DNA from: Pristiophorus japonicus
Taxonomy: Eukaryota
NCBI RefSeq assembly: GCF_044704955.1
Contig: NC_091999.1
Coordinates: 52,328,001 to 52,392,000 of the forward strand
DNA: 64,000 nucleotides
Direction of reading: 5' to 3'
A model generated the notes under the pieces. That model searched no databases. It was not told the origin of the DNA and saw only the letters and a list, made by a program, of their open reading frames with translations. Numbering within the stretch: the first letter of the stretch is position 1; each line of letters begins with the position of its first letter. The position numbers and the translations under genes are program-made. Shown piece after piece: positions 4,701 through 38,027 of the stretch.

Positions 4701-7635
4701 TTTGGACTTGCAGAAGGCTTTCGACAAGGTCCCACACAAGAGATTAATGTGCAAAGTTAAAGCACATGGGATTGGGGGTAGTGTGCTGACGTGGATTGAG
4801 AACTGGTTGTCAGACAGGAAGCAAAGAGTAGGAGAAAACGAGTACTTTTCAGAATGGCAGGCAGTGACTAGTGGGGTGCCGCAAGGTTCTATGCTGGGGC
4901 CCCAGCTGTTTACATTGTACATTAATGATTTATAAGAGGGGATTAAATGCAGTATCTCCAAATTTGCGGATGACACTAAGTTGGGTGGCAGTGTGAGCTG
5001 CGAGGAGGATGCTATTAGGTTACAGAGTTACTTGGATAGGTTAGGTGAGTGGGCAAATGCATGGCAGATGAAGTATAAGGTGGATAAATGTGAGGTTATC
5101 CACTTTGGTGGTAAAAACAGAGAGACAGACTATTATCTGAATGGTGACAGATTAGGAAAATGGAAGGTGCAACGAGACCTGGGTGTCATGGTACATCAGT
5201 TATTGAAGGTTAGCATGCAGGTACAGCAGGCGGTTAAGAAAGCAAATGGCATGTTGGTCTTCATAGCGAGGGGATTTTAATACAGGGGCAGGGAGGTGTT
5301 GCTACAGTTGTACAGGGCCTTGGCGAAGCCACACCTGGAGTATTGTGTGCAGTTTTGGTCTCCTAACTTGAGGAAGGACATTCTTGCTATTGAGGGAGTG
5401 CAGCGAAGATTCACCAGACTGATTCCCGTGATGGCAGGACTGACCTATCAAGAAAGACTGGATCAACTGGGCTTGTATTCACTGGAGTTCAGAAGAATGA
5501 GAGGGGACCTCATAGAAACGTTTAAAATTCTGACAGGTTTAGACAGGTTGGATGCAGGAAGAATGTTCCCAATGTTGGGGAAGTCCAGAACTAGGGGTCA
5601 CAGTCTGAGGATAAGGGGTAAGCCATTTAGGACCGAGATGAGGAGAAACTTCTTCACCCAGAGAGTGGTGAAGCTGTGGAATTCTCTACCACAGAAAGTA
5701 GTTGAGGCCAATTCACTAAATATATTCAAAAGGGAGTTAGATGAAGTCCTTACTACTCGGGGGATCAAGGGTTATGGCGAGAAAGCAGGAAGGGGGTACT
5801 GAAGTTTCATGTTCAGCCATGAACTCATTGAATGGCGGTGCAGGCTAGAAGGGCTGAATGGCCTGCTCCTGCACCTATTTTCTATGTTTCTATGTTTCTA
5901 TGTTTCTGCTCGCATCGAAAAATGGGTGCTCACGCTGTATGCATATAAGTATGTAATTCATCACTGGCCAGGCACAGAGAACAGCGCTGATGCCCTCAGT
6001 CGGCTACTTTTTCCACCAGCGGGATGGAAATGGAACAGCCTGCAGACTTGCTCTTGGTGATGGATGCATTTGAAAATGAAAAGTCACCCGTTACGGCCGC
6101 CAGATGAGGACCTGGACCAGCCAGGGTCCTTTACTGTCCCTTGTAAAAACTGTATCCTCCATGGGAGCTGGTCCAGCATCCCAGCGGAGATGCATGAAGA
6201 GATCAAGCTGTTCCAGCAGCGTAAAGACGAAATGTCCATACAGACGGACTGTCTTTTGTGGGGTAATCACGTGGTTTTGCCCAAGAAAGGCAGGGAAATG
6301 TTCAAACCTGACCTACACTGTGCCCAACCAGGCATAGTATTGATGAAAGCTTTAGCCAGACCCCATGTTTGGTGGCCCGATATCGACTCAGATTTGGAGT
6401 CTTGCGTGTGCCAATGCACCACTTGCTCGTAACAGAGCAATGCACCCAGGGCACCCAAGTGTGTGGTCATGGCCCTCCAAAACGTGGTCTAGCATCCACG
6501 CTGACTTTGCTGGCCCATTTCTAGGCAAAATGTTCTTCGTTCTTGTGGATTTTTATTCCAACTGAATTGAGTGTGTAATAATGTCTGTAAGCACGTCCAC
6601 TGCCACCCTCGAAAACCTACGAGCCACGCACGGCCAGCCTGATGTCCTTGTCAGCGACAACGGGCCGTGCTTCACCAGCGCTGAATCCAAGGAATTCATG
6701 ACACACAATGGGATCAAACACATCACAACTGCCCCGTTCAAGCCCGCATCCAATGACCAGACAGAACGTGCAGTCCAAACCATCAAACAAAGCTTGAAAC
6801 ACCTGTCAAAATAATCCCTGCAGACCCACCTGTCCCGAGTCCTGCTCAGCCACTGCACCAGACACCATTCTGTCACCGTGGTTCCCCAGCTGAGCTGCTC
6901 CTGAAAAGCGTGCTCAAAACAAGGCTTTCTCTCGTTCACCCTGATCTCCATGAACAAGTCGAGGGCAGGCGGCATCAATAAAGCATGTACCGTGATCGCA
7001 CAAATTTCTAACGCAATATTGAAGTCAATGACCCTGTATTTGTACTCAACTATGGACATGGTCCCTAATAGCTTGCTGGCACTGCCATAGCCAAAGAAGG
7101 GAGGAGGGTGTTTCAGGTCAAACTCGCAAATGGAATAACTTGCAGAAAGCATTTGGACCAAACCAAACTGCGATTCACAGACAGCCACAAGCAACCCACT
7201 TCGACCCTCCGACGCACACACAAGTGGCAACCAACATCATGGTAGACCACGAAGCTGAACTCATCATCCCCAGCAGCCCAGCAAGGTCAGCTGCGCAGCA
7301 GCCCAGCGAAGAACCAACCAACTCACCTGCACCTGCATTTGTACTGAGATGATCGACTCAGAAACGAAAAGCCCCAGATCATCTCAGCTTGCAAATAAGT
7401 GTATTTTGACTTTGGGAGGGAGTGATGTTATGTGTGCAACCTTATGTAACCAGAATTCTACCACCACCGTAGGCCGTATCTGTTGGAGTCCCAAGGGATC
7501 CCAGCGTCCCTTGGGAGCACTGTGTATAAGCAGACCTTCCATGTTGTACGTGCACTTTGAAGTTAGAATAAAGAGACAGGTCACAATTACTCACGTCTAC
7601 AGTACTCAATCACATTACTTTTTCTGAACTGAACA
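1730..7635 (+). mobile_element. Gypsy/Ty3 (Mag/K02A2.6-like) LTR retrotransposon, decayed, with both LTRs
   Basis: 5' LTR 1730-1942 and 3' LTR 7426-7635 (TG...CA). TSD GGTTA at 1725-1729 and 7636-7640. PBS-like TGGTGACGAG at 1945 and PPT GGGAGGGAGTGA before 7426. Protease LDMGAS, RT VVFQDDIL, RNase H LACDASLYGVG, integrase IHADFAGP and VSDNGPCF, all with frameshifts or stops. Confidence 0.95.
4271..5907 (+). mobile_element. 5'-truncated CR1 LINE nested in the Gypsy pol
   Basis: RT ORFs 4279-4935, 4981-5280 and 5296-5802 (KSPGPDGLHPR, GVPQGSMLGP, FADD); (TTCTATGT)n tail at ~5880-5907. Confidence 0.95.
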
Positions 7636-16700: not shown

Positions 16701-17097
16701 TTTATATGACCTCTTCCGCCCCCCCCCCCGCCCCGATCTTTTGCTTGCTGACTGGAACACAACTTGAATTTGACGGCCGTCACGGAACAGGAGGAGGGTG
16801 GCGGAGGCACGGGAAAGGTCAGTCGGTGTCCACGGGGAGCAATTCTGGGACAACGAGGGCGCTCACATGGACTGTCAATGGGAGATAAGTTTTGAGTGAG
16901 GCAGTGAGTAGATAAACACCAAGAGAGAGGGGGAGGAGTGTCGCTGGAACTCCAGGTGATGTAACAGATGATGGGGGTTAGTGCAGGGTAGGTAGTGAGG
17001 GGGTTGTGTTCTTGCAGTTCTCCCCCCTCCTCGGCCCCAGTGAGGCGCTGATTTTAAAATTCTCAGCTTCCTGTTCAAACACCTCGATGGCCCCGCC

Positions 17098-17480
17098 CCT
17101 CCCTATCTCTGTAACCTCCTCCAGCCCCTACATCCTTCCCTCTCACTGTAACCTTCTCCAGTCCCGACACCCCTCCCTATCTCTGTAACCTCCTCCAGCC
17201 CCTACACCCTCCCTATCTCTGTAACCTCCTCCAGTCCCTACACCCCTACCTATCTCTGTAACCTCCTCCAGACCCTACATCCTTCCCTATCTCTGTAACA
17301 TCCTCCAGCCCTACACCCCTCCCTAGCTCTCTAACCTCCTTGAGCTCCTACACCTCTCCCTATCTTTGTAACCTCCTCCAGCCCTACACCCTTCCCTATC
17401 TCTGTAACCTCCTCCAGCCCTACACCCCTCCCTATCTCTCTAAACTCTTCGAGCCACTCCACCTCTCCCGATCTCTCTAA
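17098..17480 (+). repeat. ~36-bp minisatellite derived from an L2-like LINE segment
   Basis: About 10 copies of CTATCTCTGTAACCTCCTCCAGCCCTACACCCCTCC. Confidence 0.9.
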
Positions 17481-17483
17481 CGT

Positions 17484-18005
17484 TGTTAGGGTTAACTTCA
17501 ACCCACCACTAGGATTCTGTTAGCCTTAAAGTAAATGTAGGTTTTATTAATACAAGCCGGCAGGGGAGCTATCCTTGAAGGAATGCTCGAAGATAGAGCC
17601 AGAGACATATTACTTTATACAGTTTCAGATTATAGCATTAAGTAAATACGCAAGTTCTAATTAATACATGCTGATTGATTAATACATGATTGGTACAGCG
17701 CTTTCTCCAATCTGGCTTCTATATGCCTTAATTGGCAATTCCAAATACATGTTGTTATGATTCTTTTTAATTAACTCTTATCTTGCTATACAATTCAAAT
17801 TCTAGTTATCTGTGTCTGTGCCCAGCTCCCAAGGCCTTTGGTCTATGAATTGGAACATCTGCTCCTCTGTGGAAGGCATCCCACACATGCTTCCCACAGT
17901 TTGAAAACAGGCTGTGGGATCCATTTTAAAAACCTCTTAACTCCATTTTAAAACATCGCAATTGTAATTATTAATTGTAATTTCAATTTGTAATCTGCCC
18001 TTTCA
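17484..18005 (-). mobile_element. 3' LTR of endogenous retrovirus A
   Basis: On the minus strand: PPT-like ...ACAGGAGGGAC, then TGAAAGGG...CCCTAACA (imperfect terminal inverted repeat), TATAAA at ~17614-17619 and AATAAA at ~17543-17548. Confidence 0.75.
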
Positions 18006-18261
18006 GTCCCTCCTGTTGATCCCTGATTATTTCTAAATAATCAGCTGACCACATATATGTTCTGAGCCATCTGCTGGAAATGGTGATATCAAGTCCATAT
18101 TCCTGGGATCACTTGTAGTTCCATCTTTTGCGGAGTCTTTACATACTACCCCTGACCATTTCCCTGGGATATTGGCACGCCATTTATATTTCTTTTTGTA
18201 CATACAGTTGGTTGTTTCCCTAACGCGTTACAAAATCATTCGCCTCCCTATCATGCCTACA

Positions 18262-19440
18262 TTACATAATTAACAAGGCTTTTTGCTGTTCGGCTAGAAC
18301 CACGTGGTTGTATATCTCTCTCATCTTACACATCAGATATAGTTGGATCACGATACATGTCCCTTCCACTACCATTATTACCTCAATTAAATGCCACATC
18401 AATTTGAGGACTGCGTAGGCTTCAGGTGACCAGACCTTAAAAATATCCCACCATGAACAACAATCTTTCTTTCCCTGCCTTATCCTAACCTGATTCCTAT
18501 GCCTCCCGCCTCGGTTTCGTTGATCAGGCGATAGGATTGGGACACTCACGACTCAGATCAGGTGTTCATGCCGTCTTTTTGTTTGATTAACCATCTTTGG
18601 ATCTAGCAAAGGCTTTCTGCGATCTTGGTTGCGGGCATTGGCCAACCTCTTCTTCCTGCATCTCTTGTATCTGCCTGTGCAGTCTCCCAGGAGCATCAAC
18701 ACCACTATCAGCTGCACTAGGACTAACACATGGGATATAATTCGAATCCCTATCTTGTAATTTTACTCGGGTAAGCCTTGCCTGTCTTTGCACTTGTTAC
18801 ATAACATCACCAACCAAATCAAGGCTATTACTATCTTTACTGCCACTAGAGTATGGGAAAGTATCCTTATCCAGGGATGTATAATCTCATGTACCAAGGC
18901 GGGTTTTTCAGGTTATCCTTTATTTCACTGTCCAGTTCTTTTGCTTTATCCTTCAGCTCTTAATATTTTTTAATGTTATTTCTTGAGCTAGTTAAATCTT
19001 CAAGTAACAGGGGAATTGATTGTGCTTGCTCTTCCATGTAAACATCAATATCTTGCTTAATCTCATCACTTATATTTCATGTCATTGTCTTCCTGGCATG
19101 TCATGTTTGCTCTTCCCACTGCCACCGACAGTCTTGGAGTAATGTAAGTTCCCAGGCTAGTTACTGCACAATATTCTCCTCGCCCATGATAGGTGTAATG
19201 TGTGGGTTCGGTTCGGGCAGGGTTTATTCCAATGACACATCCTTCCGTAGTATTGTAAAACCCGCAGCTATCCTTGCTCCCGTCTCCCACTGGGTGAGGG
19301 CATATAGTTAGGCTCCCTTCTCTCCGGCACATGGATAAAGATATTTCCATTCTTTTTGATCTCATACTGGTCCACCGCGGATGCACTCTTCCCCTCGTAT
19401 TATGTTTGTTTCCCCTCACATCCTCCTGTAACCGCATACG
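18262..19440 (-). pseudogene. env: env remnant of ERV A (foamy/lokiretrovirus-like fusion glycoprotein C-terminal half) with several TM modules
   Basis: ORF 19066-19437 has a Cys-rich block CRREGSLTICPHPVGDGSKDSCGFYNTTEGC...GRGEYCAVTS. After a frameshift come a heptad-like ELKDKAKELDSEIKDNL..PPWY and the TM IHPWIRILSHTLVAVKIVIALIWLV. It lies directly upstream of the PPT and LTR. Confidence 0.65.
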
Positions 19441-19444
19441 CCCT

Positions 19445-19940
19445 TGTCATTCCTTTCAAAAAGGGCCACATTACAGCAAAAGTCTAAAGGGACAAAGTGT
19501 GTTAAAAAGACAAGCCTGAAGGCTCTGTGCCTCCATGCGAGGAATATTCGTAATAAGGTGGACGAATTAACTGCACAGGCACCAATTAATGAATATGATA
19601 TAATTTGCACCACGGAGACATGGCTGTCCTAAGGCTGTGTCCCCTGGTTCTGGACTTCCCCAACATCGGGAACAAGCTACCCGCATCTAACCTCTCCCGT
19701 CCCGCCAGAATCTTTATGTTTCTATGAAATCCCCTCTCATCCTTCTCAACTCCAATGTATAAAAATCCAGTTGATCCAGTCTCTCCTCATGTGATAGTCC
19801 AGCCATCCCGGGAATCAGTCTGGTGAACCTTCGCTGCACTCTCTCAATAGCAAGAACGTCCTTCCTCAGATTAGGAGACCAAAACTGAACACAATAGTCC
19901 ATGTGAGGCCTCACCACGGCCCTGTACAACTGCAGTAAGA
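19445..19940. mobile_element. CR1 fragments (endonuclease start on plus strand ~19445-19627; RT 3' part on minus strand ~19628-19940)
   Basis: ORFs 19444-19632 (LCLHARNIRNK..TETWL) and 19714-19929. Confidence 0.8.
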
Positions 19941-20958: not shown

Positions 20959-21040
20959 GTAATCGTGGCCGAGTGGTTAAGGCGATAGACTAGATATCCA
21001 TTGGAGTTTACCCGTGCAGGTTCGAATCCTGCCGACTACG
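20959..21040 (+). tRNA. tRNA-Ser(AGA) variant; promoter boxes intact, stem mismatches, possible pseudogene
   Basis: 82 nt; A box TGGCCGAGTGG, B box GGTTCGAATCC, loop CT-AGA-TA, T-run downstream. Confidence 0.85.
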
Positions 21041-21784
21041 GATTCAGCATTTTTCATTCAATTTCAGACTTTAACCAGATCCCTGCAAAACGGATCCTGA
21101 GTTGGGTGGAATAACGTCCCACACCTTTCAACACTGACATGTTATTCTCATTTTCATTAATCTGCAATATTCACGATACATACGGATAGAAAAACGCAAA
21201 AATCAGCTAAATTAGCGACAGTGATTCAGCCTGTCTATCCCTCTATATGTCTAAGGCACTCTGTGTATATCCATTGGTGCGTCTATATTTTTTGTTATTT
21301 ATGCGTGTGTGTCTCTGTGTCTGTCTAACTGTGTATATGTCTCTGTGTATGCGCAACTGTCTGTGGATATCATCACCATGAATTTGGTATGTCCTGGAAC
21401 TTTTAAAAAAGATTTGATGAAAATAATACGGTTGTGACATTTGATATCGGCTTTGCTTCAGCGACAGCATTTTCGATTTCAAGTCCCACTCCTGAGACTT
21501 GAGCATATAATCTTGGTTGACACTCAACTGCAGTACTTGGGGAATTTTGCATTGTTGAAGATGTTGACCTTCGGATGAAATGTTAAATTGAAGCTCTGTC
21601 TGCTCTCTTGGGTGAATGTGAACGTTCCAACAGCATTATTCGATAAAGAGTACTGAGTTGCCTCCATGTCACTTTTATATAAATATTCTGAAATGCTCAC
21701 TGAAAACCTTTGTGTATGCGTGTGTCTGTGAGGGTGGAGCTCAAGCCCAGATTCTCACAGAGACAGAATGTGAAGGTTCACAAG

Positions 21785-21867
21785 TCCAGAATGGCTGAGT
21801 GTATAAGTCGTTGCATTTAAGATCCAATGGGTTTATAGCTACGTGGGTTCGAACCCCACTCCTGGTA
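21785..21867 (+). pseudogene. tRNA-Leu(TAA) pseudogene
   Basis: Intact 3' half GTGGGTTCGAACCCCACTCCTGGTA; D arm and anticodon arm degenerate. Confidence 0.8.
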
Positions 21868-22045
21868 ACTCTTGAATTTAACACGATTTTCTCCCATCCT
21901 GCTCAGTGATATCCTAATGCCTTCTGTTGAAACTGTAACTCTGTCACATTCTCAACTGACCAAGAAATGGGATTGTGAAGTGCCTCTCACTCTCTGTCTT
22001 TAGAGAGCTCTGTATATCTTTACGTGTTTGAGTCTCTGACTCAAT

Positions 22046-24915
22046 GTGTCTGAGGACCTACAAGCTGAATTCAGAGAGCTAGGAGTTAAATTAAAAAGTA
22101 GGACTTCAAAGGTCGCAAACTCAGGATTGCTACCAGCGCCACCTGCTAGTCGACTCAGGAATCGCAGGATAGTTCAGATGAATACGTGGCTTGAAGTGTG
22201 GTGCAGATGGGAGGGATTCAAGTTCTGGGAATTTGGAACCGGTTCTGCGGGAGGTGGGACCAGAACGAAACCGGACGGTCTGCACCTGGGCAGGACCAGA
22301 ACCAATGTTCAAGGGGGAGTGCATGCTAGCGTTTCTGGGGAGGGTTTAAAGTAATATGGCAGGGCGACGGGAGACAGAGGGAAGTAGAATGGGCGCAGAA
22401 GTGAAAGAATAAAAGTAAAGGTGGAGGGCAGAGAAACCCACGGCAAAAATCAAATAGGGCCACTTTACAGCAAAATTCTAAAGGGTCAACGTGTGTTAAA
22501 ATAACAAGCCTGGAGGTTCTGTGCCTCATTGCGAGGAGTATTCGTATTAAGCTGGACGAATTAACTGCACAAGCAGCAATGACTGAATATGAAATAGTTG
22601 ACATCACGGAGACATGGCTCCAGGGTGACCAAGGCTGGGAATTCAACATTCAGGAAGCATAGACAGAAATGAAAAGGTGGTAGGGTAGCGTTGCTGGTTA
22701 AAGAGGAAATTAAGGCAATAGTAAGGAACGACATTAGCTTGGATGATGTGGAATATGAATGGGTGGAACTGCGTAATACCAAAGTGAAGAAAACGCAAGA
22801 GGAGTTGTGTACAGATCAGCAAACAGTAGTAGTGAGGTTGGGGACAGCATCAAACAAGAAATTAGGGATGCGTGCCATAAAGATACAGCTGTTACATGTA
22901 GATTGGGCGAACCAAACAGGTAGCAATATGGTGGAGGAGTATTTCCTCGAGCGTATTAGGGATGGTTTTCTCACTCAGTATATCGAGGGATCATCTAGAG
23001 GGCTGGCCATCCTAGACTGGGTGATGTGTAATGAGAAAGGACTAATTAGCAATCTTGTTGTGCGAGGCCCCTTGGGAAAGAGTGACCATAATAAGGTAGA
23101 ATTCTTTATTTAGGTGGCGAGTGACACAGTTAATTCAGAGACTAGGGTCCTGAATTTAAGGAAAGATAACTTCGATGGTATGAGGTTTATATTTTCTAGA
23201 ATAGACTGGCGAATGATACTTAAAGGGTTGAAGGTGGATAGGCCATGGCAAACATTTAAAGATCAAATGGATGAACTTCAACAATTGTATTTCCCTGTCT
23301 GGAGTAAAAATAAAACGGGGAATGTGGCTCAACCGTGGCTAACAAAGGAAATTAAGGACAGTGTTAAATCCAGGGAAGAGACATATAAATTGGCCAGAAA
23401 AAGCCACAACCTGAGGACTGGGAGGAATTTAGAATTCGGCAGAGGAGGACAAAGGGTTTAATTAGGAGGGGGAACATAGATTACGAGAGGAAGCTTGCTG
23501 GGAACATAATAAAGTTCGATAGATATGTGAAGACAAAAAGATTAGAGAAGACAAACGTAGGTCCCTTGCAATCAGATTCAGGTGAATTTATAATGGGGAA
23601 GAAGAAAATTGTAGACCAGTTGAACAATGACTTTGGTTCTGTCTTCACGAAGGAAGAAACGCATAACCTTCCAGAAATACTAGGGCACCAAGGATCTAGC
23701 GAGAAGGAGGAACTGAAGGAAATCCTTATCAGTCAGGTAATTGTGTTCAGGAAATTGATGGGATTGAAGGCCGATAAATCCCCGGGGCCTGATAGTCTGC
23801 ATTGGAAAGTACTTAAGGAAGTGGCCCTAGAAATAGCGGATGATTGGTGATCATTTTCGAACAGTCTATCGACTCTAGATCAGTTCGTATGAACTGAAGG
23901 GTAAATAATGTAACACCACATTTTAAAAAACGAGGGAGATAGAAAACGGATAATTAAAGACCGGTTTGCTTGACATCAGTAGTGGGGAAAATGTAGGAAT
24001 CAATTATTAAAAATGAAATAGCAGCGCATTTGGAAAGCAGTGACAGGATCGGTCCAAGCTTTATGAATATATGAATGGGAAATCAAGCTCGACAAATCTT
24101 CTGGAATTATTTGAGGATGTAGCTCGTATAGTGGACAAGGGCAACCAGTGGATGTGGTGTATTTGGACTTTCAAAAAGGTCCCACACACGTATTGGTGTG
24201 CAAAGTTAAAGCACATGGTATTGGGGGTAATGTACTGATGTGGATAGAGAACTAGTTGGCAGACAGGAAGCAGAGAGTCGGGATAAACGGGTCCTTTTCA
24301 GAAAAGCAGGCAGTGACTAGTTGGGTGCCACAGCGCTCAGTGCTGGGATCCCAGCTATTTACAATATACATTAATGATTTAGATGAAGGAATTGAGTGTA
24401 ATATCTTCAAGTTTGCAGATGATACTAACAGGGTGGCGGTGTGAGCTGTGAGGAGGACGCTAAGAGGCTGCAGGGTGACTTGGACTGGTTAGGTGAGAGG
24501 GCAAATGCATGGCAGATGCCGTATAATGTGGATAAATGTGAGGTTATCCACTTTAGTGGCAAAAACACGAAGGCAGAATATTATCTGTATGGCAGCAGAT
24601 TAGGAAAACGGGAGCTGCAACGAGACCTGGGTGTCATGGTACATCAGTCATTGAAAGCTGGCATGCAGTTCCAGCAGGCAGTGAAGAAGGCAAATGGTAT
24701 GTTGGCCTTCATAGCTAGGGGATTTGAGTATCGGCGCAGGGAGGTCTTACTGCAGTTGTACAGGACCTTTGTGAGACCTCACCTGGAATATTGTGTTCAG
24801 TTTTGGTCTCGTAATCTGAGGAAGGACTTTCTTGCTACTGTGGGAGTGCAGCGAAGGTTTACCTGACTGATTCCCAGGATGGCAGGTCTGACATATGAGG
24901 AGAGATTTAATCGAC
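22046..24915 (+). mobile_element. CR1 LINE (ORF1 SGNH-esterase C-terminus + ORF2), 3' end lost, inserted in the tRNA array
   Basis: ORF1-like LKSRTSKVANSGLLP...DGLHL; endonuclease and RT fragments up to ~24900. Confidence 0.9.
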
Positions 24916-25414
24916 TGTGTCTCTGTGTCTGTCTCTCTGTATATATGTCTCTGTGTATGTACAACTGTCTGTGGAAATCATCACCATGAACTTGGTATGT
25001 CCTGGAACTTAAAAAAAAAGACTTGGGGAAAGTAATACGGCTGTGAACTTTTGTCTCAGCTTTGGTTCAGTGGCAGCATTCTCGACTGAATCAGGAGTTT
25101 GTTTGTTCAAGTCGCACCCCTGAGACTTGAGCATATAATCTTGGCTAACACTCAACTGCAGGACTTGGGGAATTTTGCATTGTTGAAGCTGTTGACATTC
25201 GGGTGAAATGTTAAATTGAAGCTCCGTCTGCGCACTCGGGTGGATGTGAGAGGTCCCAGAGCATTACTTCAAAAAGAATAGGAGAGTTGCCCCCGTGTCA
25301 ATATTGCTAAAAATGATCGGAAATGCTCCCTGAAACCCGATGTGTATGTGTGTGGCTGTGGGGGTGGAGTTGAAGCCCAGATTCTGACAGAGACAGAATC
25401 CAATTGCTGACGGG

Positions 25415-25496
25415 ACCAGGATGGCCGCATGGTTAAGGCGGTGGCTTTAAAATTCAATGGACCTTTCCCGCGTGGGTTTGTACCCCACTCCTGGTA
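25415..25496 (+). pseudogene. tRNA-Leu(TAA) pseudogene
   Basis: ACCAGGATGGCC...CCCCACTCCTGGTA; B box mutated (GGTTTGTACC). Confidence 0.8.
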
Positions 25497-26217
25497 TCTC
25501 TTTAATTTAACATGGATTTCCTCCCATTCCGATCAGTGATACCGGAATTTCATCGGTTGAATCAGCAATTTTCTGTACCTATGTGACACTCTGAGCCGAT
25601 AATGAAATGAAATTGTGAAATGTATCTGTGTCGCTCGGTCTCTGCCTCTCTCTCTCTTTCGAGAGCTGTGTATGCGTTTGTATGTTTGAGTCTTTGTCTC
25701 AATCTATCTGTCCCTGTTTCTCGATTTGTCTCCGTCTCTCAATCTGTCTCTTTCTCACGGTGTCCACGTCTGTCCCAATGGGATTCTCTCAGACTCTTTG
25801 TCTGACTGGCTCTCTCTTTCCCATCATTTCTGTCTGACCATATCTTTGCCTGCCTCTGTTCGTCCCTGTCTCTAACCTGATAAGTATTTCCATCATTTTC
25901 AATTTTTGTCTCTATCTCTCTCTCGCTATCTGTCTCTGTCCTTGTCACTGTCTTTATCATTGTCTTTCTCTCACTCTTTCCCTCTCTCTCTTTATAAATC
26001 ACACACGCACATCTCTGTATATGTTTGTATTTGAGTCTTTTTCTCACTCAGTCTGCCTCAGACTCATACTTTCTGTCTCTCGTTGTCTCTATCTCGTTGT
26101 CTGTCTCTCCCTGTTTGTCAGTTTGTCTCTGTCCCTCAATATGTCGGTCGGCTTCTCATTGTGTCCAGTTCTGTTCACATCTTGATTCTAGGTCTGACAA
26201 AGCCACTATCTGTCAGT

Positions 26218-26289
26218 TCCTCGTTAGTATAGTGGTGAGTATCCCTGCCTGTCACGCGGGAGACCGGGGTTCAATTCGCCGATGAGGAG
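26218..26289 (+). tRNA. tRNA-Asp(GTC), near-canonical with 3'-stem mismatches
   Basis: TCCTCGTTAGTATAGTGGTGAGTATCCCTGCCTGTCACGCGGGAGACCGGGGTTCAATTCGCCGATGAGGAG. Confidence 0.85.
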
Positions 26290-26508
26290 GCAGTTGTTTT
26301 AAAATGCAAAGTTTTACTTTTGCTTCTTGGTATAGACTCATGTTAAAAAGTTCCAGCGTAATATAGAACAGTAAAAATACAGCAAGATCAGATTGCTACT
26401 TCCAGATTTTTAGCAAGCGGAGACTGTTTCAGGATTCTGTGGCCGTCTGCTGCACAGAAATGGATGACTGAGTTTTATCTGAGTAACACTTAAAGAGGCA
26501 GCGGACCA

Positions 26509-26590
26509 GTAGTTGTGGCCCAGTGGTTAAGACGATGGACGGAAAATCCATTGGGGTTTCCCCGTGCAGATTTGAGTCCGGCCGACTGCG
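26509..26590 (+). pseudogene. tRNA-Ser-body pseudogene with GAA anticodon
   Basis: ATGGA-CG-GAA-AA-TCCAT; Ser variable arm GGGGTTTCCCC; B box mutated. Confidence 0.8.
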
Positions 26591-26739
26591 TTTCTCAGCA
26601 TATTTCATTCTGTTTGATAATTTAACCAGGTTAATGCAAAACTGATTCTGAGATAGATGGAACAAAAGCCAGCCAAAGTAGCGACAGTGAACCTGCCTGT
26701 CTATCCATCTATTTGTATAAGGCACTCTGTGTATATCTT

Positions 26740-27446
26740 GATCTGGGTGTCATGGTACATCAGTCATTGAAAGTTGGCACGCAGGTGCAGCAGGTGGTGA
26801 AGAAGGCAAATGGCATGTTCGCCTTCATAGCTGGGTGATTTGAGTATAGGAGCAGGGAGGTCTGACTTCAGTTGTACAGAGCCTTGGTGGGGTCACACCT
26901 AGAATATTGTGTTTAGTTTTGTTCTCACAATCTGAGGAAGGACGTCCTTGCTATTGCGGGAGGACAGCGAAGATTCACTAGCTTGATATCCGGGATGGCA
27001 GGACTGACATATGAGGAGAGACTGGATCAACTGGGCTGGTATCCACTGGATTTTAGAAGAATGAGAGGCGCTCCCATAGAAATATGTAAAATTCTGACGA
27101 GATTGGACAGGTTAGAGGCGGGTTGAATGTTCCCATTGATGTGGAATTCGAGAACCAAGGGTGACAGTGTAAGAATAAGTGGTAAGGCATTTAGGACCGA
27201 AATGAGGAGAAACTTCTTCACTCTGGCATTCTCTACCGCAGAAAGTTGTTGAGGCCAGATCGTTAGATATATTCAAAACGGAGTTAGATATGGCCCTTAC
27301 GGCTAAAGGGATCAAGGGGTATGGAGAGAAAGCAGGAAATGGGTACTGAGGTTGAATGATCAGCCATGACCTAATTGAATGATGGTGCAGGCTCGAAGGG
27401 CCGATTGGCCTACTCCTGCAACTAATTTATTTGTTTCTATGTTTCT
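26740..27446 (+). mobile_element. 5'-truncated CR1 in the tRNA array (paralog of 38551-39250)
   Basis: RT 3' end plus (TTCTATGT)n tail; same insertion point in the unit as the 38.5-kb copy. Confidence 0.9.
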
Positions 27447-27892
27447 ATGTTGATGCGGGTATATTTTTGGTTATTGTGTGTGTGTGTGTGTCTGTGTATG
27501 TCTGTCTGTATTCATGTCTCTGTGTATGTGCAACTGTCTATGGAAATCATCACAATGAATTTGGTGCGTCCTGGAAATTCTAAAAAGCTTGGGGCAAATA
27601 ATACGGTTGTGATCTTTGGTATCGGCTTTGCTTCAGTGGCTCCATTCTCGACTGAATCAGGAGGTTGTGTGTGTCAGTCGCACTCCTGAGACTTGAGCAC
27701 GTCATCTTGGCTGACACTCAAATGCAGTGCTTGGGGAATTTTGCATTGTTGAAGCTGTTGACATTCGGATGAAATGATAAATTAAGCTTCATCTGCACCC
27801 TCGGGTGGATGTGAAAGGTCCCATAGCCTTCTCATGGTGTCCAGTTTATTCACAGCTCGAATATTGATTTGACAAAACCAATGCGCATCAAT

Positions 27893-27963
27893 TCCTCGTG
27901 GGAAAGTGGTGAATATCCCCGCCTGTCATAAGAGAGACCACGGTTCAATTCCCTAACGGGAAG
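27893..27963 (+). pseudogene. tRNA-Asp(GTC) pseudogene
   Basis: TCCTCGTGGGAAAGTGGTGAATATCCCCGCCTGTCA...GGTTCAATTCCC. Confidence 0.8.
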
Positions 27964-28171
27964 GCTGCATTTTACAAAAGGCAGAATTTTGCTTCTGCTT
28001 CTTGGTATAGATTCATATTAAAAAGTTCCAGAGCAATATAGAGCAGCAAAAATACAGCCTCTTCCAGATTTTTAGCAAACGGTGACTTTTTCACGATTCT
28101 GTGGCCGTCTGCTGCACAGAGATGGATGGTTGATTTTTAACTGAGTAACATTTAAAAAAGGCAGTGAGCCA

Positions 28172-28253
28172 GCAGTTGTGGCCCAGAGGTTAAGGCAATA
28201 GACTAAAAATCCATTCGGGTTTCCCCGCATAGATTTGAATCCTGCCGACTCCG
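28172..28253 (+). pseudogene. tRNA-Ser-body pseudogene with AAA anticodon
   Basis: ATAGA-CT-AAA-AA-TCCAT; B box GATTTGAATCC. Confidence 0.8.
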
Positions 28254-28910
28254 TTTCTCAGCATATTTCATTCTCTTTGACAATTTAACCAGGTCCCTGC
28301 AAAACTGATTCTGAGATAGACGGAACAACGTCCCACACCTTTCAATGCCGCCGCTGTTTTCTTTCTTTCATTAATCTGCAATATTCACGATACATACGGA
28401 TAGAAAATCGCAAAAATCAGCCAAAGTTGCGACAGTGATTCAGCCTGTCTATCCCTCGAGATGTCTAAGGCATCTGTGCATGTCCGTTGGCGCGTGTAAA
28501 TTTGTGTGTGTGTGTCTCTGTGTCTGTCTATCTGTAAAAATGTGCAACTGTCTGTGGAAATCATCACCATGAATTTGGTATGTCATGGAACTTAAAAAAA
28601 AGACTTGGGGAAAGTAATATGGCTGTGAACTTTTGTCTAAGCTTTGGTTCAGTGGCAGCATTCTTGACTGAATCAGGAGTTTGTGTGTTCAAGTCGCACT
28701 CCTGAGACTTGAGCACGTCATCTTGGCTGACACTCAAATGCAGTGCTTGGGGAATTTTGCATTGTTGAAGCTGTTGACATTCGGATGAAATGATAAATTG
28801 AAGCTTCATCTGCACCCTCGGGTGGATGTGAAAGGTCCCATAGCCTTCTCATGGTGTCCAGTTCTATTCACAGCTCGAATATTGATTTGACAAAACCCAT
28901 GCGCATCAAT

Positions 28911-28981
28911 TCCTCGTGGGAAAGTGGTGAATATCCCCGCCTGTCATAAGAGAGACCACGGTTCAATTCCCTAACGGGAAG
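28911..28981 (+). pseudogene. tRNA-Asp(GTC) pseudogene (duplicate of 27893)
   Basis: Essentially identical to the copy 1018 bp upstream. Confidence 0.8.
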
Positions 28982-29189
28982 GCTGCATTTTACAAAAGGC
29001 AGAATTTTGCTTCTGTTTCTTGGTATAGATTCATATTAAAAAGTTCCAGAGCAATATAGAGCAGCAAAAATACAGCCTCTTCCAGATTTTTAGCAAACGG
29101 TGACTTTTTCACGATTCTGTGGCCGTCTGCTGCACAGAGATGGATGGTTGATTTTTAACTGAGTAACATTTAAAAAAGGCAGTGAGCCA

Positions 29190-29271
29190 GCAGTCGTGGC
29201 CCAGAGGTTAAGGCAATAGACTAAAAATCCATTCGGGTTTCCCCGCATAGATTTGAATCCTGCCAACTCCG
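29190..29271 (+). pseudogene. tRNA-Ser-body pseudogene with AAA anticodon
   Basis: Duplicate of 28172. Confidence 0.8.
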
Positions 29272-30015
29272 TTTCTCAGCATATTTCATTCTGTTTGACA
29301 ATTTAACCAGGTCCCTGCAAAACTGATTCTGAGATAGACGGAACAACGTCCCACACCTTTCAATGCCGCCGCTGTTTTCTTTCTTTCATTAATCTGCAAT
29401 ATTCACGATACATACGGATAGAAAATCGCAAAAATCAGCCAAAGTTGCGACAGTGATTCAGCCTGTCTATCCCTCGAGATGTCTAAGGCATCTGTGCATG
29501 TCCGTTGGCGCGTGTAAATTTGTGTGTGTGTGTGTCTCTGTGTCTGTCCATCTGTAAAAATGTGCAACTGTCTGTGGAAATCATCAGCATGAATTTGGTA
29601 TGTCATGGAACTTAAAAAAAAGACTTGGGGAAAGTAATATGGCTGTGAACTTTTGTCTAAGCTTTGGTTCAGTGGCAGCATTCTTGACTGAATCAGGAGT
29701 TTGTGTGTTCAAGTCGCACTCCTGAGACTTGAGCATATAATCTTAGCTAACACTCAACTGCAGCACTTGGGGAATTTTGCATTGTTGAAACTGTTGACTT
29801 TCAGATGAAATGTTAAATTGAAGCTCCGTCTACGCACTTGGGTGGTTGTGAGAGGTCCCAGAGCATTACTTGAAAAAGAATAGAGAGTTGCCCCCGTGTC
29901 AATATTCCGAAAAATGTTCGGAAATGCTCCCTGAAACCCTATGTGTTTGTGTGTGTCTGTGGAGGTGGATTTGAAGCCCAGATTCTCACATAGACAGAAT
30001 CCAGTCGCTGACGGC

Positions 30016-30098
30016 ACCAGGATGGCCGAGTGGTTAATGCGTTGGTCTTAAGATCCAATGGGTTTATACCCGTGTGGGTTCGAACCCCACTCCTGGTA
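30016..30098 (+). tRNA. tRNA-Leu(TAA), best-preserved copy
   Basis: 83 nt; A box TGGCCGAGTGG, B box GGTTCGAACCC, TTGGT-CT-TAA-GA-TCCAA (one stem mismatch). Confidence 0.85.
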
Positions 30099-31307
30099 AT
30101 TATTTAATTAAACAGTGATATCTCCCATTCTGCTCAGTGATAACTGATTTTCAACTGTTGCATTTGCATTTTTCTGCAGCTCGGTGACAATCTGAGAAGA
30201 TAATGAAATGAAATAGTGAAATGTATCTGTATCGCTCAGTCTCTGCCTCTCGCTCTCTCTTTAGAGAGCTGTATATGTATTTGTGTGTTTGAGTCTTTGT
30301 CTCTCTCAGTCTGCCTCTCTCTGATTCACTCTGTCTGTCCCTGTTTCTCTGTTTGTCTCTGTCTCTCAATCTGTCTCCTTCACACGGTATCCAGTTCTGT
30401 TCCTATGGGATTCTGTCATACTCTCTGTCTGACTGTCTCGTTCTTTCCCATCATCTCTGTCTTTGCCTGTCTCTGCTCGTCCCTGTCTCTAACCTGATGA
30501 GTATTTCCATCATTTTCTGTTTTTGTCTCTATATCTCTCTCTCTCTATTTGTCTTTCTCTCTATCTGTCTCCCTCTTTGTCTCTCTCCTTGTCCCTGTCT
30601 TTATCTCACTCTTTCCCTCCCTCTCTTTATAAATCACACAAACACATCTCTGTATATGTAAGTGTTTGAGTCTTTGGCTCATTCAGTCTGACCCTAACTC
30701 TCAGTCTCAAACTTTCTGTCTCTCTCTGTCTCTACCTCGCTGTCTGTTTCTCCCTGTTTCGCTGTTTGTCTCTGTCTCTCAATGTGCCTGTCTTTTTCTC
30801 ACGGTGTCCAGTTGTGTTCCAATGGGATTCTCTCAGTCTCTCTGTCTGACTGTCTCACTCTTTCCCGTCATCTCTGTCTATCTATGTATCTGCCTGCCTG
30901 TCTCTCTTTGCCTGTCGCTGGTAGTTCCTCTCTCTAACCTGCTGAGAATTTCCAACATTTTCTTTTTATTTCTTTGTCTCTCTGTCTATCTGTCGCTCTC
31001 TCTCCATCTGTCTCTCTCCTTGTCACTGTCTTTATGATTGTCTTTCTCTCACTCTTTCCCTCTTTCTCTTTATTGATATCACACACACAGATCTCTTTAG
31101 ATGTATGTGTTTAAGAGTCTTTTTCTCACTCAGTCTGCCTCTCGTTTTCAGTCTCACACTTGCTGTCTCTCGTTGTCTCGATCTCGCTGTCTGTCTCTCC
31201 CTGTTTGTCGGTTTGTCTCTGTCTCTCAATGAGTCTGTCGACTTCTCATGGTGTCCAGATCTATTCACAGCTCGAATATTGCTTTGACAAAACCCATACG
31301 CATCAAT

Positions 31308-31378
31308 TCCTCGTGGGAAAGTAGTGAATATCACCGCCTGTCACACGGGAGACCACGGTTCAATTCCCTAACGGGGAG
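31308..31378 (+). pseudogene. tRNA-Asp(GTC) pseudogene
   Basis: ...CGCCTGTCACACGGGAGACCACGGTTCAATTCCC; D arm degenerate. Confidence 0.8.
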
Positions 31379-31585
31379 GCTGCATTTTACAAAAGGCAGA
31401 ATTTTGCTTCTGTTTCTTGGTATAGATTCATATTAAAAAGTTCCAGAGCAATATAGAGCAGCAAAAATACAGCCTCTTCCAGATTTTTAGCAAACGGTGA
31501 CTTTTTCACGATTCTGTGGCCATCTGCTGCACAGAGATGGATGGTTGAGTTTTAACTGAGTAACATTTAAAAAGGCAGCGAGCTA

Positions 31586-31667
31586 GTAATCGTCGCCCAG
31601 TGGTTAAGGCCATAGACGAAAAATCTATTCGGGTTTCCCCGCATAGATTTGAATTCAGCCACCTCCG
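31586..31667 (+). pseudogene. tRNA-Ser-body pseudogene with AAA anticodon
   Basis: ATAGA-CG-AAA-AA-TCTAT (fully paired stem); B box mutated. Confidence 0.75.
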
Positions 31668-32422
31668 TTTCTCAGCATATTTCATTCTGTTTGACAATTT
31701 AACCAGGTCCCTGCAAAACTGATTCTGAGATAGACGGGACAACGTCCCACACCTTTCAATTCCGCCGCTGTTTTCTTTCTTTCATTAATCTGCAATATTC
31801 ACGATACATACGGATAGAAAATCGCAAAAATCAGACAAAGTTGCGACAGTGATTCAGCCTGTCTATCCCTCGAGATGTCTAAGGCATCTGTGCATGTCCG
31901 TTGGTGCGTGTACATTTTTGTGTGTGTGTCTCTGTGTCTGTCTATCGGTAAAAATGTCTATGTGTATGTGCAACTGTCTGTGGAAATCATCACCATGAAT
32001 TTGGTATGTCCTGGAACTTAAAGAAAAGACTTGGGGAAAGTAATATGACTGTGAACTTTTGTCTCAGCTTTGGTTCAGTGGCAGCATTCTTGACTGAATC
32101 AGGAGTTTGTGTGTTCAAGTCGCACTCCTGAGACTTGAGCATATAATCTTGGCTAACACTCAACTGCAGCACTTGGGGAATTTTGCATTGTTGAAACTGT
32201 TGACTTTCGGATGAAATGTTAAATTGAAGCTCCGTCTGCGCACTCGGGTGATTGTGAGAGGTCCCAGAGCATTACTCGAAAAAGAATAGGAGAGTTGCCC
32301 CCGTGTCAATATTCCGAAAAATGTTCGGAACTGCTCCCTGAAACCCGATGTGTTTGTGTGTGTCTGTGGAGGTGGAGTTGAAGCCCAGATTCTCACATAG
32401 ACAGAATCCAATCGCTGACGGC

Positions 32423-32505
32423 ACCAGGATGGCCGAGTGGTTAAGGTGTTGGGCTTAAAATCCACTGGGTTTATACCTGCGTGGGTTCGAACCCCACTCC
32501 TGGTA
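32423..32505 (+). tRNA. tRNA-Leu(TAA) variant or possible pseudogene
   Basis: Intact A and B boxes and acceptor stem; CT-TAA-AA loop; anticodon-stem mismatch. Confidence 0.8.
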
Positions 32506-33713
32506 ATTACTTAATTAAATAGAGATTTCTCCCATCCTGCTCAGTGATAACTGATTTTCATCTGTTGCATTTGCATTTTTCTGCAGCTCGGTGACAATCT
32601 GAGCAGATAATGAAATGAAATAATGAAATGTATCTGTACCGCTCAGTCTCTGTGTCTCGCTCTCTCTTTAGAGAGCTGTATATGTATTTGTGTGTTCGAG
32701 TCTTTGTCTGTCTCAGTCTGCCTCTCTCTGATTTACTCTGTCTGTCCCTGTTTCTCTGTTTGTCTCTGTCTCTCAATCTGTCTCCTTCACACGGTATCCA
32801 GTTCTGTTCCAATGGGACTCTGTCATACTCTCTGTCTGACTGTCTCGTTCTTTCCCATCATCTCTGTCTGTCCATGTCTTTGCCTGTCTCTGCTCGTCCC
32901 TGTCTCTAACGTGATGAGTATTTCCATCATTTTCTGTTTTTGTCTCTATGTCTCTCTCTCTCTATTTGTCTTTCTCTCTATCTGTCTCCCTCTTTGTCTC
33001 TCTCCTTGTCCCTGTCTTTCTCTCACTCTTTCCCTCCCTCTCTTTATAAATCAGACAAACACATCTCTGTATATGTATGTGTTTGACTCTTTGCCTCACT
33101 CAGTCTGACCCTCCCTCTCAGTCTCAAACTTTCTGTCTCTCTCTGTCTCTATCTCGCTGTCTGTCTCTCCCTGTTTCGCTGTTTGTCTCTGTCTCTCAAT
33201 GTGCCTGTCTCTTTCTCACGGTGTCCAGTTGTGTTCCAATGGGATTCTCTCAGTCTCTCTGTCTGACTGTCTCACTCTTTCCCATCATCTTTGTCTATCT
33301 ATGTCTCTGCCTGCCTGTCTCTCTTTGCCTGTCCCTGGTAGTTCCTGTCTCTAACGTGCTGAGAATTTCCACCATTTTCTTTTTATATCTTTGTCTCTTT
33401 GTCTATCTGTCGCTCTCTCTCCATCTGTCTCTCTCCTTGTCACTGTCTTTATCATTGTCTTTCTCTCACTCTTTCCCTCTTTCTCTTTATAGATCACACA
33501 CACAGGTCTCTTTATATGTATGTGTTTGAGAGTCTTTTTCTCACGCAGTCTGCCTCTCGTTTTCAGTCTCACACTTGCTGTCTCTCGTTGTCTCGATCTC
33601 TATGTCGGTCTCTCCCTGTATGTCGGTTTTTCTCTGTCTCTCAATGTGTCTGTCGACTTCTCATGGTGTCCAGTTCTACTCACAGCTCCAATATTGCTTT
33701 GACAAAACCCACT

Positions 33714-33785
33714 TCCTCGTGAGAAAGTGGTGTGTATCCCCACACGTCACGCTGGAGACCACGGTTCAATTCCCTAAATGGGAAG
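33714..33785 (+). pseudogene. tRNA-Asp pseudogene
   Basis: Degenerate Asp body at the expected position in the unit. Confidence 0.7.
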
Positions 33786-34002
33786 TTGCATTTTACAAAA
33801 GGCAGAATTTTGCTTGTTTCTTGGTATAGATTCATATTAAAACGTTCGAGAGCAATATCGAACAGCAAAAATACAGGTAGAGGTGATTGTCTCTTCTAGA
33901 TATTTATCAAATGGAAACTTTTTCTGGATTCTTTGACCGTCTGCTGCACAGAGATGGATGACAGTGTATTTTCTGAGTAACGTTGAACGAGGTAGTAACG
34001 CA

Positions 34003-34085
34003 GCAGTCGTGGCAGAGTGGTTAAGACGATGGACTAGTAATGCATGCTGTTTTAGCCGCTCAGGCTCGAATCCTGCCAAATATTA
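34003..34085 (+). pseudogene. tRNA-Ser-body pseudogene with AGT anticodon
   Basis: ATGGA-CT-AGT-AA-TGCAT; 3' acceptor strand degraded. Confidence 0.75.
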
Positions 34086-34849
34086 TTTTCAACATTTTTC
34101 GTTCCATTTCACAATTTAACCAGGTCTCTGCCAAAACAGTTCCTGACATAGAAGGAATAACGTCCCATACCTTTCAACACTGACATTTTTTTCATATTTT
34201 TATTAATCTGCAATATTCACGATTTATACGGATAGAAAAACACAAAAATCAGCTAAATTTGCGACAGTGATTCAGCCTGTCTATCCCTCTATTTGTCGAA
34301 GGCATCTCTGCATGTCCGTTGGTCCGTGTAAATTTTTGGTGATGTGTGTGTGTGGGTCTCTGTGTCTTTCTATCTCGATATATGTCTCTGTGCATGTGCA
34401 ACTGTCTGTGGAAATCATCACCATTAATTTGGTAAGTCCTGGAACTTAAAAACAGACTTGGGGAAAGTAATTCGGCTGTGAACTTTTGTCTCTGCTTTGG
34501 TTCAGTGGCAGCATTCTCGACTGATTCAGGAGTTTGTGTGTTCAAGTCGCACTCCTGAGACTTGAGCATATAATCTTGGCTAACACTCAACTGCAGCACT
34601 TGGGGAATTTTGCATTGTTGAAGCGGTTGACTTTCGGATGAAATGTTAAATTGAAGCTCCGTCTGCACCCTCGGGTGGATGTGAGAGGTCACAGAGCATT
34701 ACTCCAAAAAGAATAGGAGAGTTGCCCCTGTGTCAATATTGCTAAAAATGATTGGAAATGCTCCCTGAAACCCTTCGTATTTGTGTGTGTCTGTGGGGGT
34801 GGAATTGAAGCCCAGATTCTCACAGAGACAGAATCCAATCGCTGACGCG

Positions 34850-34932
34850 ACCAGGATGGCCGAGTGGTTAATGCGTTGGGCTTAAGATCCAATGGGTTTA
34901 TACTCGAGTGGGTTCATATCCCACTCCTGGTA
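34850..34932 (+). pseudogene. tRNA-Leu(TAA) pseudogene
   Basis: B box mutated (GGTTCATATCC). Confidence 0.8.
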
Positions 34933-36121
34933 ATTGCTTAATTAAACAAATGTATTTTTTTCCCCATCCTGCACAGTGATACCCGATTTTCATTTGTTGC
35001 ATTTGCATTTTTCTGTAGCTCGGTGACACTCTGAGCAGATAATGAAATGAAATTGTGAAATGTATCTGTGTCGCTGTGTCTCTGCCCCTCTCTCTTTAGA
35101 AAGCTGTGTATGTGTTTGTGTATTTGAGTCTTTGTCTCTATCAGTCTGCCTCTCTCTGATTCACTCTGTCTATCCCTTTTACTCTGTTTGCCTCTGTCTC
35201 TCAATCTGTCTCTTTCTGATGGTGTCAAGTTCTGTTCCAAATGGATTCTCTCAGACTCTCTGTCTGACTGTCTCTCTCTTTCCATCATCTCTGTCTGTCC
35301 ATGTATTTGCCTGTCTCTGTTACTCCCTGCCTCTAACCTGATGAGTATTTCCATCATTTTCTGTTTTTGCCTCTTTGTCTCTCTCTCTCTCTATCTGTCT
35401 TTCTCTCTATCTATCTCCCTCTTTGTCTCTCTCTTTGTCCCTGGCTTTTTCTTGTCATTCCATCACTATTTGCCTCCCTCTCTTTTTGGAGCACGCAAAC
35501 ACATCTCTGTGTACGTGTTTTCAAGTCTTTGTCTCACTGAGTCTGACCCTCCGTCTCAGTCTCAAACTTCCTGTCTCTCTCTGTCTCTATCTCACTGTCT
35601 GTCACTCCCTGTTTTCCTGTTTGTCTCTGTTTCTCACGGTGTCCAGTTCTGTTCCAATCGGATTCTCTCAGTCTCTCTTTCTGACTGTCTCACTCTTTCC
35701 CATCATCTCTGTCTGTCTATGTCTCTGCCTGTCCGTCTCTCTTTGTCTGTCGCTGTTAGTCCCTGTCTCTATCCTGATAAGTATTTCCATCATTTTCAGT
35801 TTTTTCTCTATATCTCTCTCTCTATCTGTATCTCTCCTTGTCACTGTCTCTATCATTGTCTTTCTCTCATTCTATCCCTCTCTCTCTTTATAGATCACAC
35901 ATACAAACCTCTGTATCTCGATGCGTTTGAGTCTTTTTCTCACTCAGTCTGCCTCTCCTTCTCAGTCTCACACTTTCTGTCTCTCGTTGTGTCTATCTCG
36001 CTGTCTGTCTCTCCCAGTTTGTCGGTTTGTCTCTGTCTCTCAATGTGTCTGTCGACTTCGCATGTTGTACTGTTCTGTTCACAACTCGATTCCTGCTCTG
36101 ACAGAACTGATACTCGTCAGT

Positions 36122-36192
36122 TTCTCGTTAGTATAGTGGTGAGTATCTCAGCCTTTCATGCGGAAGAGCGGGGTGCAATTCATTGCAGGGAG
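36122..36192 (+). pseudogene. tRNA-Asp-body pseudogene with TTC anticodon
   Basis: TTCTCGTTAGTATAGTGGTGAGTAT..GC-CT-TTC-AT-GC; T arm degenerate. Confidence 0.75.
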
Positions 36193-36411
36193 GCCGTTTT
36201 TTCAAAATGCATAATTTTACTTCTGTTTCTTGGTATAGATCCATGTTATCAAGTTCCAGAGCAAGAAAGAACAATAAAAATACAGATAGAGGAGATTGCC
36301 TCTTCCAGATTTTTAGCAAATGGAAACTTTTTCAGGATTCTTTGGACGTCTGCTGCACAGAGATGGATGACTGCATTTTTTCTGCGTAACGTTTAAAGAG
36401 GCAGCAACGCA

Positions 36412-36493
36412 GTCGTCGTGGCCGCGTGGTTAATGCGATGAACTAGAAATCCATTGGGTGTTTCACATGCAATTTCGAATCCTGCCGACTTTG
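36412..36493 (+). pseudogene. tRNA-Ser(AGA) pseudogene
   Basis: CT-AGA-AA loop; several stem mismatches. Confidence 0.75.
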
Positions 36494-37256: not shown

Positions 37257-37309
37257 ATGAGGATGGACGAGTGGTTAATGCTTCGGACTTGAGATCCTCA
37301 GTCTTGGTA
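37257..37309 (+). pseudogene. tRNA-Leu pseudogene, internally deleted
   Basis: GGATGGACGAGTGGTTAA...CTTGGTA at the expected position in the unit. Confidence 0.6.
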
Positions 37310-37955: not shown

Positions 37956-38027
37956 TCCTCGTTAGTATAGTGGTGAGTATCCCCGCCTGTCACCCGAGAC
38001 ACCGGGGTTCAATTCCACGACGAAGAG
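37956..38027 (+). pseudogene. tRNA-Asp(GTC) pseudogene or variant
   Basis: 5' half canonical; 3' anticodon stem and acceptor stem mismatched. Confidence 0.8.

Follow-up and report, generated by a model that had tools for sequence, protein, structure and literature searches.

Why should one reading frame at the 3' end of an endogenous retrovirus (ERV) hold three anchor-like membrane segments in succession, each closed by its own stop codon? The question is raised by a minus-strand locus in the 64,000-nt stretch of Pristiophorus japonicus DNA analysed here (the window). A preliminary description had reported three serial anchor/tail modules in a single frame, separated by single stops, and both its translations and its stop coordinates proved exact: read from 18882, the frame is closed at 18765-18763 (TAA), 18555-18553 (TGA) and 18264-18262 (TAA), and the best 19-residue hydropathy windows of the three segments score 2.36 (from 18855), 2.70 (from 18741) and 1.98 (from 18390). 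No 19-residue window above 1.5 occurs in the other two minus-strand frames inside the element. We consider this serial architecture real and odd, and probably a fossil. The reading that we prefer, and to which we would give about an even chance, is that the three segments are stranded 3' ends of two or three env-like genes, stacked by recombination or deletion. The locus contains the following features.

17484 to 18005, minus strand: 3' LTR, with TG...CA ends, TATA boxes and a poly(A) signal
18006 to 18016, minus strand: polypurine-tract-like run, abutting the LTR
18262 to 18453, minus strand: module 3 core, with a Trp-rich segment, anchor 3 (about 18390-18334) and a short tail; first in-frame ATG at 18399
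18454 to 18552, minus strand: Arg-rich start of the module 3 frame, without ATG; unaligned in contig X7-27
18553 to 18762, minus strand: module 2, with anchor 2 (about 18741-18685), a paralogue of anchor 1, and a basic tail of about 43 residues; stop TGA
18763 to 18912, minus strand: module 1, with anchor 1 (about 18855-18799) and a short Cys/basic tail; stop TAA
18867 to 19076, minus strand: predicted long stalk-like helix leading into a Trp/Tyr-rich stretch; stops at 18962-18960 (internal) and 18869-18867 (end)
19077 to 19455, minus strand: Cys-rich stretch left from an env-like ectodomain, its frame broken in this copy; CP-x10-CG-x7-C at 19302
19456 to 19625, plus strand: LINE-like repeat fragment truncating the 5' side of the element; 86% match to 22450-22619

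The retroviral element and its env-like gene

The retroviral setting that had been claimed for the modules is borne out. The minus-strand LTR is 522 nt long, begins with TG at 18005 directly after the purine tract, ends with CA at 17484, and carries TATAA at 17634 and 17619 and AATAAA at 17548. To these marks of an LTR retroelement (TG...CA ends, TATA, poly(A) signal and preceding purine tract) can be added many dispersed related copies, seen as 3572 contigs in one run and also in a second organism. There is no second LTR copy within the window. The 5' part of the element is severed at about 19456 by the repeat fragment, which we take to be of CR1/L2 type; at 19456-19457 contig depth leaps and loose ends are many. 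The window holds no pol for this element, which is why we do not place it in the Loki, foamy-like or SnRV-like families. Sister elements share the 3' region, the purine tract and the LTR start (17985-18005) but differ in their LTR bodies (contig X7-25; X6, with a loose end at 18002), which points to several LTR subfamilies.

A 37-nt minisatellite of 10.5 copies (17096-17481) immediately adjoins the LTR end. Dispersed tRNA genes (Ser, four Leu-TAA and two Asp) lie in repeated (GA)-rich units at 20959-38029, a tandem array starting at about 52820 repeats with a 54-nt period at least 62 times, the copies overlapping and for the most part 90-95% alike, and an inverted LINE-like pair (4747-5906 and 39614-40773) is 1160 nt long and 92% complementary.

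Position and anatomy suggest that the gene upstream of the modules is an env. In a single-sequence AlphaFold model of its X-marked read-through, helices span residues 95-128 and 132-148, at low confidence (mean pLDDT 45). The immunosuppressive domain and the CX6CC motif are absent from all three minus frames of 18006-19460; a gamma-type Env is defined by that domain and by CX6CC before the anchor (bioRxiv 2021.11.23.469661, in the portion available), so the upstream gene would not be gamma-type. The earlier reading of this env as running directly into module 1 does not hold for the present copy: the stalk frame stops at 18869-18867 and is not the frame of module 1, the shift being located between 18912 and 18870. 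An imperfect slippery heptamer at 18909 lies in phase for joining the stalk to anchor 1, and the RNA behind it folds into no structure (z +0.94). The offset between stalk and anchor 1 (18912-18867) may be either a founder lesion or a switch between soluble and anchored forms.

Comparisons with known systems, here and below, refer to the available portions of the cited sources. Lokiretrovirus Env carries CP-x12-CG-x9-C in 5/5 full-length proteins, against CP-x10-CG-x7-C here (by eye), and its Cys-rich region, also found here, is followed by one C-terminal anchor; this single anchor has another sequence, however, and by eye no long helix or Trp-rich stretch precedes it (PMC7947760). The hosts named in the abstract of that source include no cartilaginous fish, and five module motifs found no Env match in the portion of its supplement that was searched. 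A version of the Cys pattern with an added Pro, present in 2/5 Loki Env proteins, matches once in the window, at this locus, the pattern having been written after both had been seen, which makes its chance figure optimistic. A fourth Cys that seemed to extend the Loki-like pattern was dropped, as it sits where other copies differ in frame. Foamy virus Env, an F-related fusion protein, has helices and a membrane-proximal region before its anchor, as here (PMC11468914), and the env region gave no Pfam or PDB sequence match to foamy Env. Lokiretrovirus Env is characterised by likeness to Fusion_gly (PF00523); the env fragments here gave no Pfam match, and their Cys spacing is like that of Loki Env by eye only. 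The three foamy-like Env ends compared each carry a single anchor and bear no resemblance to the modules here (PMC5512871), and whereas foamy-like ERVs show GGGTG at the border of polypurine tract (PPT) and LTR (PMC5210030), the junction here reads GGGAC then TG. By eye, a similar PPT/LTR junction and LTR end occur in the scaffold-2 CmiERV of elephant-shark lineage I, which differs in having a gamma-type Env with one anchor (PMC4422223).

From this anatomy we infer an F-like env, for which sequence searches gave no match, and the element would at most work like an F-like retroviral env with passenger ends. Pfam returned nothing above cut-off for nine pieces and the X-marked ectodomain, the best hit being Hemotin (E 0.027), a generic anchor likeness. 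Relatives were found in 0/32, 0/77 and 0/1010 candidates of word-seeded protein searches, HMMER gave 0 matches for the three modules against 1.84 billion representatives, PDB sequence searches gave chance matches only, and Atlas yielded no usable match for two unaltered ORFs. Scans of viral and metagenome contigs revealed no relative, and Rfam gave 0 matches. The literature searched, which took in few subscription papers, contains no description of serial Env anchors, and the available parts of PMC13524379, PMC13709493, PMC8672886 and bioRxiv 2024.03.25.586437 have nothing on them. The ERV family, with its non-gamma Env, is apparently undescribed.

Paralogy and constraint of the anchors

Modules 1 and 2 had been described as diverged paralogues, and this was upheld (BLOSUM62 score 56; p 0.0002 by global and 0.002 by local shuffle), while the likeness of module 3 to modules 1 and 2 is not significant (p 0.07 and 0.27). 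The DNA likeness of module 2 to module 1 begins about 13 nt past stop 1 and is restricted to the anchor, so that module 2 lacks an ectodomain of its own. Module 2 also bears coding constraint relative to module 1: over 17 in-register codons of anchors 1 and 2, pN is 0.31 and pS 0.75 (Fisher p 0.006; 0.006 and 0.004 over 18 or 22 codons), and 6/6 replaced hydrophobic residues are still hydrophobic, against 51% expected (p 0.018), although all these p-values are somewhat flattering because the stretch was picked by its alignment. The excess of pS over pN and the retained hydrophobicity suggest that selection acted on anchors 1 and 2 for a long time, as expected of the ends of two separate env genes.

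The same figures bear on the idea that the modules are chance hydrophobic frames in non-coding 3' sequence. No module has a database match, as that idea would have it. Three such segments in any of the six frames arose in 1/5000 base shuffles of the 621 nt, and in 38/607 other tiles of the window (about 8 clusters, several in (GA)/(CT)-rich repeats). With so few shuffles matching, significant paralogy and pN below pS a chance origin is largely refuted for modules 1 and 2; for the locus as a whole we find it scarcely credible.

Other copies of the element and possible routes to expression

To place this copy among its relatives, we compared four contig sets (3572, 55, 289 and 107 contigs, mostly 90-99% alike), of which X5 comes from a second organism. 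The sets show presence only, none is on record as RNA, and X1 is possibly the window's own sample; the figures for other copies rest on what was listed of each kind: 40 of the 356 places with variants, 12 of the 62 indels and 32 of the 4032 pieces. Stop 2 is bridged by five listed pieces with net length differences of 0, 0, 0, -24 and -1 (frame kept in 4/5), and stop 1 by two, with 0 and -1 (frame kept in 1/2). Since pieces bridge both stops at like spacing, the order and spacing of the modules are older than this insertion. The layout is common to other copies in two organisms, and a family with one anchor only, the outcome named beforehand as fatal to the serial arrangement, was not seen among the listed pieces. 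Neither internal stop has a variant among the 40 of 356 listed places, which include places 1 and 9 nt from stop 2 supported by 43 and 37 contigs in X1; this suggests that both stops are family-wide.

The single frame and the stops invite the view, raised in the preliminary description, of a once multi-pass Env, here a three-pass protein later broken by two nonsense changes. It would explain why one frame runs throughout, and the family was perhaps defective when it spread. Yet all three anchors have the same predicted orientation, with 5/2, 8/1 and 3/2 basic/acidic residues per 20 on the C-sides of anchors 1, 2 and 3. Under the positive-inside rule of membrane-protein topology, which a three-pass reading violates, anchor 2 would sit inside-out, with the 8 basic residues after it outside the cell. 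Moreover, anchors 1 and 2 are duplicates and not a hairpin pair, and neither stop shows a variant among the listed places. We consider the multi-pass claim unsupported and very improbable.

Other copies also inform on the decay and constraint of individual parts. The offset between stalk and anchor 1 is bridged by two listed pieces, one ungapped and one with three unplaced gap letters; as the ungapped piece is from the second organism, the offset is common to at least one other copy. Length differences between this ectodomain and those of other copies fall within 19215-19357 and 18945-19018, and in the former interval the difference seen in two other pieces is not a multiple of three. At two positions of anchor 3 that are polar here, most other copies have a more hydrophobic residue, which indicates that this copy has decayed. 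Elsewhere in the family the module-2 tail varies in length (net changes of -24 and -17, and skips of 89-125 nt). Listed variants number 3 in 198 nt in anchors 1 and 2 against 12 in 132 nt in the module-2 tail (p 0.002), and they are also sparser in anchor 2 alone than in that tail (p 0.03), in a list selected by support. The synonymous share is 10/29 (p 0.08-0.25), with no excess in any frame. The sparser variants give a weak hint of constraint on the anchors after the modules had been joined.

Module 3 is seen behind other upstream sequence in contig X7-27 (1978 nt, depth 87.5), which aligns only at 18329-18453, from the first Trp codon onward; the 1824 letters upstream of this part have no alignment to the window at 80%, and no joint is listed at that depth. 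Contig X7-25 (depth 93.5) spans 17985-18294; some 20 nt into the LTR, at 17985, it parts from the window sequence. The two are probably parts of one sister element that has module 3 and lacks modules 1 and 2, and the simplest reading of X7-27 would be that the Trp/anchor-3 segment can end a different upstream region, although this contig could alternatively stem from a relative too diverged to reach the 80% cut-off, or could be a fragment lying in host DNA. In fish ERVs, some long and unnamed env-like ORFs presumably end in anchors of the anchor-2 and anchor-3 types. The paralogy first proposed for modules 1 and 2 stands; module 3 behind unlike sequence in X7-27 comes near to the unrelated insertion that had been named as a refuting case. 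The Arg-rich stretch before the Trp pair (18454-18552) may, we presume, recall the RNA-binding motifs of Rev-like proteins.

X7-27 also bears on whether modules 2 and 3 were one env end, namely anchor 2 and, behind it, a tail about 140 residues long that contains a late Trp-rich/hydrophobic helix. A single nonsense change in the family founder would have broken this tail, and anchor 1 would have arrived later. Such an end would account for the shared frame and open linker of modules 2 and 3, its basic loop would be cytosolic, the Env tail of snakehead retrovirus (SnRV) has 136 residues (PMC12193657), and the PPT/LTR ends are by eye like those of an elephant-shark ERV. We nevertheless hold it to be quite improbable, given that X7-27 has the Trp/anchor-3 part without the linker or anchor 2 and that stop 2 is without a listed variant even though places 1 and 9 nt away are listed.

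Splicing and readthrough had both been put forward as routes to modules 2 and 3. The AGs said to lie before module 2 are indeed present, but with at most 4 pyrimidines in the 14 upstream bases they make poor acceptors, and a donor score of 7 of 9 is reached at 18489 alone, outside the stalk. Readthrough found no support: stop 1 is UAA (UAA-AAU), described as a consistently weak readthrough codon (PMC13517186, available portion), stop 2 is UGA-GUC, and the RNA folds after the two stops are no better than shuffles (z -0.68 and -0.55). Joints removing anchor 1 number 0 of 6 listed in the four contig sets, none of which is RNA, so that the count says nothing on expression; the 6 joints have no minus-strand GT-AG ends. 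No ATG precedes anchor 2, the first ATG of module 3 (18399) falls just before its anchor, and an N-myristoylation start is absent from both modules.

Alternative anchors and small accessory membrane proteins, taken together, are nonetheless a tentative possibility, and they remain candidates given that variation among copies is lower in anchor 2 than in its tail and that the frame has been retained. In its broadest form, a cartilaginous-fish retrovirus with an F-like envelope would have carried a cassette of swappable anchors and tails or of small Env-derived membrane proteins, with splicing or frameshifting selecting between a secreted form and as many as three anchored ones; we consider this doubtful. 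More specifically, splicing or recoding in the progenitor virus might have supplied one ectodomain with anchor 1, anchor 2 or anchor 3, so that its Env forms would have differed in their cytoplasmic tails; a secreted form may have stopped at 18869-18867. The like predicted orientation of the three anchors, the constraint on anchor 2 relative to its tail and the retention of the layout in two organisms agree with such switching, as does an offset between stalk and anchor 1 that is not private to this copy and has the in-phase heptamer at 18909; foamy virus Env-Bet offers a precedent for 3' Env splicing (PMC6950176). The purine-rich acceptors, the misplaced donor, the weak UAA, the featureless folds after both stops and the heptamer, and the missing synonymous excess in listed variants all count against it, and we judge it unlikely.

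Modules 2 and 3 might instead be small accessory membrane proteins, Vpu-like or FAST/sORF2-like, which a complex fish retrovirus would have expressed through spliced subgenomic RNAs. The interval between env and LTR is the site of accessory genes in fish complex retroviruses: fish foamy-like ERVs have extra genes there, like the extra modules here (PMC5210030, PMC5512871), in one cichlid foamy-like ERV an accessory gene is duplicated (PMC5512871), and SnRV combines its long Env tail with small spliced ORFs of 52, 94 and 76 residues, comparable to the tail and the short frames of 69 and 96 residues here (PMC12193657). sORF2/FAST-like fusogens are short frames with one anchor and a polybasic stretch after it, as in module 2 (bioRxiv 2025.03.14.642691), and the combination used to recognise them, a single anchor followed by at least 3 K/R in 15 residues, is present in modules 1 and 2. 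Module 3, for its part, has an ATG just ahead of its anchor. The fusogens are described, however, for env-less elements, whereas module 2 derives from an env anchor and lacks the ATG/myristoylation start (bioRxiv 2025.03.14.642691): no module has its own start codon with an N-myristoylation motif, anchor 2 has no preceding start codon, and it is paralogous to an env anchor. In addition, the accessory genes of teleost foamy-like ERVs have no TM motifs in the available part of PMC5210030, and Pfam gave no match above cut-offs. We regard accessory proteins, too, as improbable.

Proposed origin and meaning of the stacked anchors

Several observations lead us to favour stranded env ends. No route to expression was found for modules 2 and 3, the C-sides of all three anchors are basic, as in three separate type I ends, X7-27 holds the module 3 core without modules 1 and 2, and the module-2 tail tolerates length changes. 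In such a history, a diverged paralogous env ending at anchor 1 would have been placed upstream by template switching during reverse transcription. The ancestor of the multi-copy ERV family would then have carried the whole stack, its upstream envelope protein being served by anchor 1 only. An older env end (anchor 2 with its tail) may have been left behind as an untranslated passenger, and the end of a further membrane-protein gene (the Trp-rich segment with anchor 3) may likewise be a passenger, both kept because of their position immediately ahead of the purine tract and LTR. Anchor 2 would have come under constraint while it still served as the anchor of its own gene, and the family would have spread afterwards, possibly already env-defective.

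Stranded ends leave the shared frame and the open linkers unexplained, a coincidence for which a hand estimate gives 1/9 x 0.17, or a chance of about 2%. The smaller number of listed variants in anchors 1 and 2 than in the module-2 tail also counts against them. Finally, no intact relative was found, and the parent genes are those we infer from their ends.

If the three segments are indeed stranded env ends, the locus would be a compact record of serial envelope replacement, useful to paleovirology, and not a new mechanism. If, on the other hand, anchors 2 and 3 are expressed, it would represent a retroviral means of varying the tails of Env or of deriving small membrane proteins from one of its anchors.
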